Shown: piece after piece, positions 12,001 through 18,000 of the stretch
Position numbering within the stretch: position 1 is the stretch's first letter
Layout: every line of letters starts with the position of its first letter
Position numbers: made by a program
Virus genome (UHGV): UHGV-0036853
Source of the DNA: a virus
DNA length: 64,000 bases
Strand: one strand, 5' to 3'

Positions 12001-15000
12001 TACCGTCATGAGTTCCTTGAGTCTCGCTCACCATATCCAAAGTCGCTTGCAACTTATCAGCTCTCTCTTTTTCAGCAAGATAATGAACACCGAAATGATG
12101 TGCTAAAGCTACAACCTGAGTTGGCTCTTCAAAGGTGGACTCAAAATTAAGTGCTGTAACCACTCTCTCAAATATGGAAACGTCTTCTATTCCTCGAAGA
12201 ATGGCTAACATTTTGACCAGTTCATTAGCATTCATTTCTTCGAATAAGGCGTTTTGTTCATCAGCTATCGCTTTGCATTTCTTGCACATGTGTTTTTCCT
12301 AATGCTTAAACAAGTTGTTTTCTTATTGGCTTTATTGTGATGTGGCATAAAAGGGGAGCAAGCTAAACGTAAAGGTGCAAACTCTCTATTTCGGTCAACG
12401 AAACACAAGGGCCATTTGGCCCTTGTCATTAACACGTTGCTTTACGGACTAGCGGATAAGCGAAGTAGATCGCCAGACCAATGAGGACGCCATCAGAAAT
12501 GACAGACATCATCTTTCCCGTAAAATCCACCAACACCGCCATCACCAGAAGAGCAATGACGGTCACAAGCCGGAATCTCTCAAGCATTAGAGATAAGCAT
12601 CCAGTGACAACTGAAGCGCCTGGGCGATCTTTTTCAGCGCCTGCTCTTCTGGTTCATCAATGCCGTCTTGGTCGGCAATATCAAGGCACAGACACAGTAC
12701 ATCTACTGCATCATCAGTCCCGGCCACATCCGCCAGCTCACGTAAAGCCTGGGCATTAGCACGGCGCGGTGAGGCTTCGTATTGAGCGCGGATATTGGCG
12801 CTCATTTGGGCAATCTCACCAGCAAAAGGAGAAAATGCAGGCAGAGCTGCAATTGTTTTCTCAAGAATGGAAATTTCTTTTGCATCGCATGTACCGTTGG
12901 CATAGGAGATCATGTACCCACCCCACACGGTGGCTTCAACCGCATCACGGTTCTCCATTTTTTTGACTTCGATAACTGCTTTACGAGTTTTCTTTTTGAA
13001 GAAACCTAACATGTGTTTTCCTTTTGTTATTTGTCAAAACAAGTTGTTTTCTAGTTAAATAAATTGCTTACGCAAAGACGGTCAATGCATATGCACTAAC
13101 AACCGTCAGAAATAACCAAGTACCGAACCAACTGGAAAAACAAAAATCCCAACTACACGAGCCAAGGTCATGCCAGCCTGAAACTGGAGATCACCAGAGC
13201 AAACAAGTTTTATAATGTTCGATACCCAACCGGCGGCCATGATGGCCAGAATTGCCAGCCAAATTTTTCCAAAGTGATTTGAAAACCAGTTCATACAACC
13301 GCCTTAGTCACAGCATGATCCTGAGTAACTGGATGAACTTGAGGTATCGCATCCACCGCCATCCCATCCAGAGTGACAGGACGCTCCACTGGAGTGGTGG
13401 TAATTGTCGTCGACGAAGGTATGGTGATGGATGAATCCGGCATCAAAAGGCTCTGACCGGCTGGAACGGCTACCGTCGCCAGTGAAACTATAATGAGAAC
13501 GTAGGCCATTGGTTTCAGCCTCTTTCTTTGAAAATTTTCCATCCGAACGGTCCTTGTTGTTTTTCTCCTTCACTAAAGGCCGTGCATTTTTCGCTTCACA
13601 TGAAGAACTGGAGGTTACAATCGCCCCCACGTTCGCAACAACTGACGCTTGCTTATCTAAACGTGCCTTCAGCACCAGAACGGTAGTTTCCAATTCATCA
13701 AGACGTGACAGAAGGCGACCGCTAAATAATTCGGCCAAAATTTGACGTAAAGAACGAGGGCGTTTAGTTGCAGGAGTTAAAAAAAATTGACGTGCCATAT
13801 GGACTCCATCCAGTGTCAGAAAGAGTTGCGGCTGGCGTTTGCCAGCCGCCTTTCTCGTTCCATCCTGGAACTGTGTCTTACCGACACATTGTCATCCTGA
13901 CGCCGATAAGATACATGATTTAAAATAATAGGTAAACACTTACTTACTACTTATTATAAACAAAACCAATATCTTTCTTGTGAGGCATATCTGCTGCGGA
14001 AAAAGCTGCGATCTTCGCGAGTCGATCACATATTTCATTTTCACGATGCCCGGCGTGACCTTTAACCCACTTCCAGCGAACATTATGTCGACTTGCGGCC
14101 TCATCCAGACGCTTCCACAGATCAACATTCTTTACCGGTTTTTTGTCAGAAGTCATCCATCCATTGCGTTTCCACCATTTCATCCACTGTGTCATGCCGT
14201 TTTTCAGATACTGGCTATCAGAGTGCAAAATAACGTTGCATGGATATTTCAAACGCTCCAGCCCGATAAGTGCCCCCATCATCTCCATGCGGTTATTGGT
14301 GGTGCTATGAAAACCATCTGAGAACTCGCGTTCCTCACCACGATACTGGAGTACTATACCGTAACCGCCCGGGCCACCCGGATTTTTAAGGCAAGAGCCA
14401 TCACTGAAGATTTTCACGGTTTTAAGCTGGGGATTGAACTCTACGACAGGCGTTGTGGGATTGGTGCGGGGAGAATTTTTGTTTTTGTCTTTTTTGCGAG
14501 TTTTTGCTTGCGACCGGGCTGGTGTCTTCGACGTCATATAAACTCCTGAATCAAGCGCCGCGCCGATTTTTTTCCTCGCGCGTGCGCACACGCGTGCGTG
14601 TAATAATTATTAAAATAAACAAATTACTTCCCAGTACAGGTTTTTATAAACCTGAACTGAACGAACGAAGTGAGTGAAGTTCACCTCGAACGAAGTGAGA
14701 GGTTGTCTTTTCAGGTAATACTCTCCCAGGGAGGTGAGTATAAAATTCCTCACCAACCTGGTCGTTTCATAACCTGAAAAGCTATGGTCTAAGTCTACTG
14801 CCAGCTTAGACTTGGGAAGTTATGGATGACAGCACCCCAGAACCGAGATCTTCCCACACTTTATGAAGGGGAGTACTGGATTCAACCTCTCGAAACACCC
14901 CAGACTCGACAATCATAAAGTGACCCTTGTCTCTGCTCACTTTGGTTCCCCCTTCCCCGACACCTAAACGGCACCGGTTCTACGCTGGTAGTGAGCTTTT

Positions 15001-18000
15001 TTAAACCTGACGCCAGTGACGCTTACCCCCACCCATCAGGTCGAGTCTCCAGTCTATGACTGGAAACTATCAGATCTTAGCACTTACAATTCACCTTATG
15101 AATAGTTTGTACTTATCTATTATTTCGATTGATTATTTTCTCGACCATGTAGTTGAACATTCAAGGCAAACACCTCGTTGATCAACTCACCTAAAAGCTG
15201 TTCAACAAGTTCGCGATGCTCCCCAAGATGCAAGCACTTAATTGCCCATTCGTACAAGTTGAAAGCCTGCTCGCGATCTTTCATCATTTCACGAGCCTTA
15301 GCCAGAAAATCGCTCTCTACGAGCGCAACAACATTGGTCGGGTATGACATGTTAGTTTTCCTTAAAGTGGTTCATAAAATCGATTTTAAAGCGTCTGAGA
15401 AGGGGTTCTAGTGGATTCTGTAGTGATGTTCAGGTCTGGAGTCTCTGATACAAAACAGCCTGCTTCCGTATATTAATAATTAATATGTAGTTATTTATAT
15501 ATACAGAAGCAGGCTAATTACAGACGCCAGAACAAACTAAGCAGCCTTCTTTGATGGTCTTTTTTTCCTGATCACATTCGCAGGATCATACCCTCCCAGA
15601 CTTTTCATGACGTCCAAAGGGATCTTGCTTATAGAGTGCCCAGCGTCCTGACAGAATCCTCGAAAAACAACGAGCATACTGCCACCGGGGTTGATGTTTA
15701 CTTCTACCTGACCCAAATTGACGTCAGGCTCGACAAACGCTACGCGGCCACCAGACAGAATAATCGTCTCATTCGCATACTCTGTTGCACGCTCATACCA
15801 CTTTGTATCGAGGGATTGAGGAATTAGCATCACTGTTGTAACTCCGCGAGCCTGCTCACGTATAGCCGCATCAATCCAGGGGGAGATTTTGGAGTAGGGT
15901 GGATTGAGGAAGGCAATTGTACCTGGCTGTCCCCATTCAGATTTCAAAGCATCACGCTCAACGCCTATGAAATTAGGCAGCTTTGCGTTGTCCTTGTTGC
16001 AGGCAACGTCAACATCAAATGTCACTCCAAGATAACGTTGAATGGCAGAAAATAGCCAGTCAGGTGTTCTCCAGAGGTCACGAAGAGAGTTGTCGCGCTT
16101 TCGCTGTTTGATTTTTTCGGCTGCAATCATCTTCTTTCTCGATAGGTAAGTGATTACCTATTTTTGCATTTGATTTTATGTATGGCAATCAAATAAAACG
16201 CGCCAGAAATGCGAACAAGAAGCTCTCTGGCGCGTTTTTGTGGCGCTGGGTATGGGTTAGCTTACCCAGCACTATAAAGCTCTCTATGGGCTTTATTTTC
16301 AGTAGGGGAACGTCATCCAATAGTGTACTCCGCGACAAACTTCTTAACGATCGGTGATTCTTCGTTCAATGTTAGATTTCCACCGTCTCTAACGGCAATT
16401 CCTGTAGCTGGAAATACAGCCATCATTTGCCCAGCCTGAGTTGACGCAGTGTTAAGCGGATACGGTTTTTCTGGATTGCTCATTAAAGCAATCTTAATAC
16501 TATTACTTGTAGCCTTCTTTTCTGTGAGAAGGTGTCTCATGGAAATTACCGTGTAAACACTAATATCTGGACCTCCGCTAAACCAATTAAGAAGGTTTAA
16601 TATCTTATCCTTTGCTTTGACAGGCGCGTTTTCGTAAGCGTCTAAGAAGATATCTGTTTCTAAGCCTGCTTTATTGAAAAACGAATCATCTTTATCACTT
16701 AAAGTAAAACGAGGACCTCTTGCAGTACGAGCTTTTTTATTTGTATTGCTATCATTTGACTGTTGAACTTTTAATTCATCATTAACCTCAACACACTCTT
16801 CAACCTCAATCAATCCCAATTGTTCTGGCTCGTTTTCGGCAGATTCAACACTTTCAGCGTTAATTACGTTTATAGGCTCATGCGCTAACTCCAACTCATT
16901 TAAAGCAGAGCTGAAATCACCTGCTTTTTCTTCATTGAACAGTTCTTCGGCAACATCATCAGAACTCATGGCTACGCCAGCATCGAGGCCGAGCAGCAGA
17001 TCGTCAATATCATCAGTATTTTCAACCTGTGCGGCTTTTTTTACTGGTTCATCAAGTGATTGCAACATGGCTGTCAGCTCGTCCAGATCATCATTTGTCA
17101 TTACATTTTCAACCGAACTCATGTAAGTCTCCTTCTGTTTGGTTACATTTGCGTTTCGATGGCTATATTTTGACTAAACCTATCAGGCGGAAAAGTGTTA
17201 AATGAAGGTAATAGAGTCATAAACGGGTCATAGTTCTGATGATTATGTGTTCCTGATTGCTTTACAAATAAGCAAGCAAACTTACACATGTTACTTTTTG
17301 TGATTGAGTTCACAAAAAACACCTTTCATAAAGGTTATTTATAACGCTGTTTTTTATGTTTTTATGGCAAGAAAAATGGAAGCATCAAGAAAAGATCAAA
17401 TTAGCAACTTATTAATAAGAGCTGTTATAGCTATAGCCGTAGTTGAATACATTTATCTTTTTGCAAGATACTTTTAATAGAAAAACCTACTTTAAATTGA
17501 ATTTAAAGTAGGTTTTGTTTTAGGATATTTCAGTAGGCAATTTAAAAAATCCGTACTTATTACGTGCCTTAAAGAAGCATTGCATCATTAAGTTTGTGTC
17601 ATATAAGGCACTATGTGCTTTGGCATGATCGTATATAAAGCCAAGAGAGAAGGCCAACTCTTCAAGGCGGGGACGTTTACCGTCTTCTGTGGCCCACAAT
17701 CCCGATAACATAGTATCTATAACAGGAACGTCTGGCAGTCTTACTCCATACCCTGAAAACTCGTGTCGAATAAATGGTATATCAAACGCTTCACCGTTAT
17801 GAGCAATCCACGCACTACATGCCCCCATATAAGCGCCAATTTCGCTGGCATGATTTGACAACAAAGGTTCAGCTGCGAGCTGTTCCAATGAAATGCCATG
17901 AACGGCTTGAGCTTTCGGATCTATGTTTCTGCGAGGGTTAAAACGCATCTCCAGACTATCAATATGTCTCTGTGTCTCCAGTTCATAGCGGGTAATTGCG

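Follow-up and report, generated by a model that had tools for sequence, protein, structure and literature searches.

A conserved structured RNA, very probably non-coding, appears to be encoded upstream of rnhA in SSU5/pHCM2-like phage-plasmids

The DNA analyzed here, UHGV virus genome UHGV-0036853 (64,000 nucleotides [nt]; hereafter the window), is an SSU5/pHCM2-like phage-plasmid of Escherichia coli. Between the gene for RNase HI (rnhA) and an upstream gene for a 76-amino-acid (aa) protein lies a gap without a conserved open reading frame (ORF), as an earlier note made from the sequence alone had described. We conclude with high confidence that this gap houses an independent minus-strand gene for a structured non-coding RNA of ~455 nt, here called type A. 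The complete proposal, which extends to how the RNA would act, we put at about even chances. The earlier note had favored a structured RNA, or else an origin of replication or packaging, over a simple promoter. Conservation, covariation, a promoter, and a transcript strongly support the RNA; the origin was not supported, given a RepA gene with iterons at 28.4-30.2 kb and a terminase gene located elsewhere. The extent proposed in the note, 14600-15119, needed adjustment. Because the rnhA start is placed at ATG 14537, the non-coding gap is wider (14538-15119), and the functional unit, at ~15102-14612 on the minus strand, overruns the ends of some of the features that the note had listed. The elements of the predicted gene are as follows.

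14612-15067, minus strand: whole predicted transcript (type A), ~455 nt, with the promoter used to place the 5' end and the U-tract to place the 3' end
15074-15102, minus strand: predicted sigma-70-type promoter (-35 TTCATA at 15102-15097, 17-nt spacer, TG at 15082-15081, -10 TAAGAT at 15079-15074)
14624-15045, minus strand: conserved RNA core, with per-column conservation of 0.92-1.00 versus 0.70-0.90 in flanking coding DNA
15046-15066, minus strand: 5' stem-loop (UUUCCAGUC-AUA-GACUGGAGA), starting ~7 nt downstream of the -10 element
15004-15042, minus strand: helix H2, a long irregular hairpin with three compensatory pairs (A-U to G-C, C-G to U-A, and A-U to G-C) and all cells paired
14935-14996, minus strand: helix H3 (GCUCAC/GUGAGC), enclosing H4 and the G-rich GGGGAAGGGGGAACC; an H3 pair occurs as U-A (28), C-G (14), or U-G (8), and in H4 G-U changes to G-C or A-U
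14857-14922, minus strand: helix H8 (CACUUUAUGA/UCAUAAAGUG), enclosing H9 and H10, with a compensatory change in one pair and a U-A to U-G change in two
14787-14811, minus strand: hairpin H13, with pairs that vary as G-C/G-U/A-U, U-A/C-G/U-G, and C-G/U-A
14707-14781, minus strand: long hairpin H14 plus H15 predicted by RNAalifold, almost invariant and resting on thermodynamics; it contains the hairpin at 14726-14761 of the earlier note
14662-14699, minus strand: two CUCACUUCGUUCG copies; H16 (14692-14662) has the second copy as its 3' arm and the palindrome of the earlier note as its loop; all bases are invariant (50/50)
14612-14671, minus strand: 3'-terminal interrupted stem-loop (14671-14626), AA, and U-rich UUUGUUUAUUUU (14623-14612), -15 to -19 kcal/mol; candidate intrinsic terminator

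Related loci were gathered from IMG/VR by way of the RNase H protein, and 62 unique sequences from the resulting 71 loci were aligned. The relatives span Escherichia, Salmonella, Klebsiella, and Enterobacter. The RNA core was the most conserved stretch in this part of the element, its edges were sharp at both ends, and ~210 nt of the 3' half were essentially invariant across genera. A 406-nt core was found in 687 PLSDB plasmids at 91 to 100% identity, in a 1-kb neighborhood that was 80 to 90% identical in most of them; the hosts were Klebsiella (310), Escherichia (195), Enterobacter (88), Salmonella (49), and others. The RNA was also present in 232 of 5,426 complete E. coli genomes, and a search of E. 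coli with 459 nt found no annotated feature beneath the match among the matches listed. Unrelated phages with an rnhA at 38 to 49% identity mostly lacked a large upstream gap and gave no profile match. A scan of genome contigs for distant relatives returned chromosomal rnhA only and was uninformative.

Both strands of the region folded better than 100 shuffles, the minus strand with z = -3.95 and the plus strand with z = -3.36. RNAalifold, run on 50 unique sequences, proposed 128 pairs in 17 helices, with 99.6% of cells canonical. Changes on both sides were seen in 66 cells; shuffles gave 17.6, and sliding the partners by 1 to 3 columns gave at most 5. The covariation score was 0.072, versus 0.052 in shuffled alignments (0 of 500 reached the observed value) and at most 0.024 in slid ones. 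Because only ~5-6 clades are represented and many spurious covarying column pairs turned up in a free scan, a column-preserving control was added. Pairs with both columns variable were canonical in all 50 sequences in 9/9 cases, against a background of 4.0% (P = 2e-13), and of the pairs with one variable column 10/18 were fully canonical (background, 14%; P = 4e-5). On the plus strand, these two sets kept canonical pairing in only 3/9 and 0/18 cases. The plus-strand reading fails because the intermediates are G-U; those of H13, for instance, become C-A mismatches. In independent runs, the alifold energy was -143 kcal/mol for the minus strand and -115 kcal/mol for the plus strand. Covariation supported H2, H3, H4, H8, H13, and the terminal hairpin. 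Further covarying pairs, such as those of pseudoknots, were also sought in a free search, but clade structure swamped the signal and nothing usable emerged. Taken from the alignment, a minus-strand structured RNA is strongly supported, with base pairs that appear to have been kept beyond phylogeny in the 5' half, H13, and the terminal hairpin.

The repeats and hairpins that the earlier note had listed were all found, at the positions it gave or within one base. The direct repeat is a 13-nt CGAACGAAGTGAG, exact at 14662-14674 and 14687-14699, and by our estimate ~0.002 such repeats are expected per 520 bp, so that it lies far beyond chance. The palindrome GTGAAGTTCAC is present at 14674-14684. 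The ccagg-gaggtgag hairpin has arms at 14726-14738 and 14749-14761 that are 85% complementary, and its true 3' arm is CTCACCAACCTGG; the second hairpin, GTCTAAG...CTTAGAC at 14787-14811, is the H13 of our fold. AACCTGA occurs at 14649, 14771, and 15004, although three copies of a 7-mer are only marginally unusual. No tandem repeats were found in the region. Two sets of mutually exclusive pairings can be drawn: UGGGAAG is present twice and either copy is a possible partner of CUUCCCA, and CAACCUCUC has both GAGAGGUUG and GAGA..GGU as possible partners. We also observed that, in the invariant hairpins at 14726-14761 and 14662-14692, the Shine-Dalgarno-like arms GGUGAGG and GAGGUGA pair with CUCACCUCC and UCACUUCG. 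We take these two partner arms to resemble the 3' end of 16S rRNA, and GGUUGG...UCACCUCC presumably recalls the 16S 3' terminus.

The predicted promoter was kept throughout the 62 unique relatives, although the surrounding bases vary. The -35 element reads TTNNNN, the 17-nt spacer and a -10 element of the form TANNAT are found in 62/62 sequences each, and the TG extension is found in 52/62. The 5' hairpin that follows differs wholly in sequence between clades (CCGGA/UCCGG, CUGGCAGAU/AUCUGCCAG, CGAUUUCGA/UCGAAAUCG), with the stem and its place kept. At the other end, most clades retain the terminal hairpin and the U-tract, and one hairpin pair shows a compensatory change from U-A to G-C; together they may form an intrinsic terminator. 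A palindrome, GGTAAGTACTTACC, adjoins the -35 element in SSU5 and several other clades; the corresponding interval of the window (15103-15120) holds a degenerate form (GATAAGTACAAACT). An operator is one possible role, and weak termination of the 76-aa gene is another.

Expression was assessed from published RNA sequencing (RNA-seq) that covers a 96%-identical phage, Cyrano, in E. coli LF82. Its genome (OV696614.1) carries an annotated 44-aa ORF, CYRAN_81, equivalent to window positions 14940-14806 on the minus strand. In the LF82 prophage study, CYRAN_81 was expressed 12-fold above the local background and classed as a "moron" (PMC9928086). Table S1 of that study lists, for E. coli LF82, 117 fragments per kilobase per million (fpkm) for CYRAN_81 compared with 9.5 for CYRAN_80 and 8.4 for rnhA (PMC9928086). 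The log2 values for CYRAN_81 were 6.8 to 6.9 in LB, 9.0 to 9.3 in B1, 6.9 in B6, and, in macrophages, 8.2 to 9.0 at 1 h and 10.3 at 6 h (PMC9928086). Its level was high in all five conditions, was ~10-fold higher in macrophages than in LB, and paralleled, in profile as well as in magnitude, that of the putative repressor CYRAN_45 (table in PMC9928086). Between the RNA and rnhA, the RNA-seq signal falls ~12-fold. A local, autonomous transcript is made in the lysogen while the surrounding operon is silent.

Searches against known families were negative. At the gathering level of Rfam 15, only three transfer RNAs (tRNAs) at 49.7-49.9 kb were matched in the window, and under permissive settings Rfam returned nothing above chance level for 14400-15400 (19.5 bits at best, E of at least 0.22). 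ARAGORN found no tRNA or transfer-messenger RNA in 14300-15400. A search of the literature on SSU5/pHCM2 with non-coding RNA, small RNA, or origin found no description of the RNA. It appears to represent a large non-coding RNA that is new, unannotated, and widespread and that lies outside the described RNA families. The earlier note had proposed a covariance-model search, a look for a transcript, and a comparison of relatives for compensatory changes, and it would have withdrawn its reading given no transcript, no covariation, and poor conservation. Rfam matched no family; a transcript is seen in the LF82 data, covariation is present, and conservation is high. Targets in the same genome were sought as well. 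No complementarity of at least 13 nt exists between the RNA and the window, exact complementarity is at chance level, and RNAduplex against 214 translation-initiation regions of the whole plasmid performed no better with the RNA than with shuffled RNA. On these results, an antisense regulator of its own genome was rejected.

The same slot holds a different RNA in a Klebsiella lineage represented by the contig L165. The gene order there is the same, the gap measures 650 bp, and rnhA and the small upstream protein are 51 and 49% identical to those of the window.

~3385-3850 of L165, also in L167-L170 and L172-L181: type B RNA, ~440-480 nt, Klebsiella phage-plasmid lineage

Homology between the two types was not detected by nhmmer, blastn-short, shared k-mers, or an unfiltered covariance model of the type A 5' domain, and the only sequence they have in common is a promoter-proximal ATAAGTA..ACTATT. 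Type B gave no Rfam match. Its fold has z = -6.3 and comprises 149 pairs, 17 of them with compensatory changes among five sequences only, and its conservation equals or exceeds that of its flanks. It starts with a fully covarying GC hairpin followed by A3U6 and ends with a hairpin and U7 nested in a very long stem. Type B occurs in 30 plasmids and 10 IMG/VR contigs. At two of these loci, L168 (2052-2498) and L170 (2055-2501), rnhA is replaced by a convergent 148-aa ORF (WP_110218815.1, no Pfam match) and the type B RNA remains. Since it persists there, the RNA of this slot is not tied in cis to RNase H, and the link between the two is positional only. A separate observation concerns the IMG/VR contigs L067 and L068, whose RNase H is 89% identical over residues 24-184, yet which have no type A RNA upstream; their rnhA frame appears disrupted.

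The surroundings of the gap were characterized in addition. A 1-kb piece around it is 99.7% identical to plasmid p009_B (NZ_CP048306.1), 96 to 98% identical to Escherichia phages PhiR41_1 and Cyrano, and ~81 to 85% identical to Salmonella phage SSU5 and Klebsiella relatives. The genes, all on the minus strand, are in the order nrdAB, thyA, dhfr, 3'-5' exonuclease, dam, 76-aa gene, gap, rnhA, with Pfam matches among the neighbors to RNase H and Dam. Three further features border the RNA.

13947-14537, minus strand: rnhA, the downstream gene, RNase HI with a basic N-terminal extension (Pfam RNase_H, E = 1e-44)
15120-15350, minus strand: gene for a 76-aa helical protein (phrog_5343), the upstream gene, 49% identical to its type B counterpart
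14577-14600, no strand: strictly alternating pyrimidine-purine run of 24 nt between the RNA and rnhA (CACGCACGCGTGTGCGCACGCGCG on the minus strand; two CGCGTGCG copies with a 12-nt period on the plus strand)

An AGGAG Shine-Dalgarno sequence precedes the ATG at 14537, and all relatives align from residue 1. The start of rnhA is most probably this ATG, as judged from these signals, and not the GTG at 14591. The alternating run is Z-DNA-prone and sits between the A/T-rich tail of the RNA and the rnhA ribosome-binding site. It is kept across type A clades, lies outside the conserved RNA core, and by eye has no comparable counterpart in the type B sequence of L165. Annotations that translate through it (GTG 14591, or the 765-nt rnhA call of SSU5) are probably wrong. 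For the 76-aa protein, no match was found in Pfam or among PDB sequences, and an AlphaFold2 (AF2) single-sequence model (four helices, predicted local distance difference test score [pLDDT] of 73) gave no Foldseek match.

The plasmid origin lies elsewhere. An ORF for a Rep3/RepA-type initiator occupies 28414-29628 on the plus strand and is accompanied by 15 iterons, TATGCTRYSAGCGG (0.04 expected by chance), 3 of them at 28413-28512 and 12 at 29629-30158. From this arrangement, the interval 28413-30164 is identified as the plasmid replicon (RepA plus iterons). Since the first three iterons overlap the called start of the initiator ORF, its true start is probably downstream of 28512. No iteron was found near the RNA region, where the only repeats are the two 13-nt copies that form part of the RNA hairpin. 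On the basis of RepA and the 15 iterons at 28.4-30.2 kb, a plasmid origin at the RNA region was rejected. The genes for terminase, portal, and ParB are found on the opposite half of the plasmid, and the packaging site (pac) is probably located elsewhere, with terminase.

We propose that in the lysogen the sigma-70 promoter at 15102-15074 would drive transcription of an RNA from ~15067 to ~14612 that would end at the terminal stem-loop and U-tract, both ends being approximate. Such a 3' end would account for the silence of rnhA in lysogeny. The RNA would then probably act in trans during the plasmid (lysogenic) state. Its covarying 5' half may serve as a scaffold, and its invariant 3' half, including both CUCACUUCGUUCG copies, may bind a conserved partner, either a protein or another nucleic acid, that would itself be conserved across Enterobacteriaceae or across these phage-plasmids. 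A binding partner, rather than upkeep of the fold alone, is suggested because, from one host genus to another, the loops of the 3' half are invariant as well as its stems. A trans-acting mode is favored by the silent operon, the absence of a complementary site in the phage-plasmid's own genome, the dispensability of rnhA in the sister lineage, and again the invariant 3' half; we adopt it tentatively, at a little under even chances. Several points weigh against what we propose. For H11, H12, and H14-H16, helices that show no variation, the fold is only predicted. The variation derives from ~5-6 clades, and clade structure alone yields many spurious covarying pairs. The terminator is non-canonical: a simple consensus scan missed it, and in the Klebsiella clade the hairpin is weak and the U-tract poor. 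The RNA-seq support consists of published gene-level counts that resolve neither strand nor ends. Finally, the trans-acting mode was arrived at by elimination.

The RNA is probably neither a leader of rnhA nor the plasmid origin. As a leader or insulator in cis, it would be a long 5' leader whose conditional terminator keeps rnhA and the downstream early-lytic genes off in lysogeny, with read-through in the lytic phase by antitermination or by a ligand or protein switch. The position of the RNA directly upstream of rnhA, on the same strand and inside a long co-directional operon, fits this view, as do the ~12-fold drop in signal before rnhA and the duplicated motifs that permit mutually exclusive pairings. 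However, a promoter of its own is active while the entire surrounding operon is silent, 455 nt that are more conserved than the gene they control would be unusual, and in type B the RNA of L168 and L170 has a convergent gene, not rnhA, downstream of it. We consider a leader unlikely. Less probable still is an R-loop primer for a lytic origin, in the manner of ColE1 RNA II or of the T4 and mitochondrial R-loop origins. The transcript would stay hybridized at the AT-rich 14623-14601, and a cut by the phage RNase HI would prime the leading strand. The parts for this are present in order (a promoter, a folded G-rich RNA of ~450 nt, ~23 bp of nearly pure A/T, the Z-DNA-prone run, and a gene for RNase HI) within a block of replication and nucleotide-metabolism genes, and type A is similar in size to RNA II. 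Against it stand the RepA/iteron origin elsewhere on the plasmid, the abundance of the RNA, which is greatest in the non-induced state, the persistence of type B without rnhA, and a GC skew that is unchanged here. In addition, a simple consensus scan of the window called no plus-strand promoter inside 14600-15050, there was no sign of an RNA I-like antisense, and the upstream 76-aa protein is not Rop-like. With no plus-strand promoter called and no Pfam, PDB, or Foldseek match for that protein, a ColE1-like trio of Rop-like protein, primer RNA, and RNase H was set aside.

The region might instead act purely as DNA, holding operators or a packaging or partition site, with incidental folds. In favor of this are a 3' half whose loops are as invariant as its stems, an 11-bp palindrome set between two exact 13-bp repeats, and, in several clades, the palindrome GGTAAGTACTTACC just upstream of the -35 element. 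But covariation with G-U intermediates fits one strand only, an autonomous transcript is present, the terminase, portal, and ParB genes are far off on the plasmid, and there is no repeat array, so that we regard this as very improbable. Hardly any weight, finally, falls to a gene for a small protein, be it the 44-aa CYRAN_81 or another short ORF. CYRAN_81 is annotated in OV696614.1, is listed as an expressed "moron", and has an intact frame in 37/50 sequences. In the other 13/50, however, the frame is broken by 1- to 2-nt insertions or deletions that cover whole clades, in the region of H8 (14857-14922), and the nucleotide sequence stays conserved where the frame breaks; the start codon, moreover, is GTG. 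The six other core ORFs of at least 30 aa are not conserved either, and all seven are broken in 12 to 45 of the 50 sequences. With no reading frame conserved across these 50 relatives, a small-protein gene or type I toxin was ruled out.

Some observations made elsewhere in the window and in the Cyrano data can be added. The earlier note had called the gap the longest non-coding stretch, which is not strictly true, as two others, the iteron field (29629-30206) and the tRNA region (49117-50396), equal or exceed it. Three tandem tRNA genes lie at 49681-49924 on the minus strand, within a 1.3-kb stretch without an ORF of at least 80 aa. In the LF82 data, the top Cyrano transcript was CYRAN_43, a "hypothetical protein" by the integrase/repressor, at 723-fold above the prophage background, and CYRAN_40 was at 15-fold. 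The equivalent of CYRAN_43 in the window falls at ~52.8-53.3 kb, by coordinates that were extrapolated and not aligned.

Among known systems, GOLLD and ROOL (also OLE and raiA) are comparable to type A in that they comprise hundreds of nucleotides and many helices, are more conserved than neighboring genes, and have no known partner or function; the GOLLD/ROOL class is likewise carried by temperate phages or plasmids. Type A differs in matching none of their Rfam models nor any other, in being found in Enterobacteriaceae, and in being smaller than GOLLD or ROOL; it is expressed in lysogeny, whereas GOLLD has been reported during lysis. The locus shares with the RNA II/RNase H/Rop system of ColE1 a folded RNA of ~450 to 550 nt with its own promoter, an AT-rich stretch, and RNase HI and a small helical protein alongside. 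It differs in having RepA and iterons elsewhere, no antisense promoter called in the RNA body, a small protein without similarity to Rop, and no sequence or Rfam similarity. Like the immunity RNAs of P1/P7 (c4), P4 (CI), and N15 (CB), type A is made in lysogeny by a phage-plasmid and contains short repeated elements; its level tracks that of the repressor, and the alleles (types A and B) differ between related lineages. However, RNAs of the c4/CI type measure ~70 to 80 nt, arise by processing of a leader, and have repeated pairing targets in the same operon, whereas type A measures ~455 nt, does not match the C4 family of Rfam, and has no complementary plasmid site that we could find.

CsrB/CsrC and 6S resemble type A as stable, abundant, multi-hairpin RNAs with repeated short motifs, and by this likeness the invariance of the 3' half again suggests a conserved binding partner. 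A CsrA sponge was nevertheless rejected: in a hand count, the GGA motifs numbered ~8, near chance expectation, which together with the missing Rfam match separates type A from CsrB/CsrC. From 6S it differs in lacking a single long hairpin with a central bubble. Prophage morons, with which CYRAN_81 had been grouped, also have their own promoter inside a silent prophage operon, but they are normally patchy accessory protein genes, whereas type A is non-coding and present in every one of the 687 matching plasmid records.

Existing annotation is corrected by these results, both for the CYRAN_81 "protein" and for rnhA starts that were extended too far, as in the 765-nt call in SSU5. SSU5/pHCM2-like phage-plasmids are common in clinical Enterobacteriaceae, and type A is one of the few transcripts made during phage dormancy. 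As a large, complex RNA without an Rfam family, it is a candidate for new RNA biology. It is conceivable, though doubtful, that the slot between the 76-aa gene and rnhA holds a new class of lysogeny-expressed RNAs of ~450 nt, with non-homologous, lineage-specific forms (A and B) that serve as specificity determinants of the dormant element. If so, these RNAs would function, for example, in superinfection immunity or incompatibility, anti-defense, or host-factor capture through an undescribed RNA-protein or RNA-RNA mechanism. Type A would offer an experimental handle on how phage-plasmids keep or leave the plasmid state or manipulate their host.

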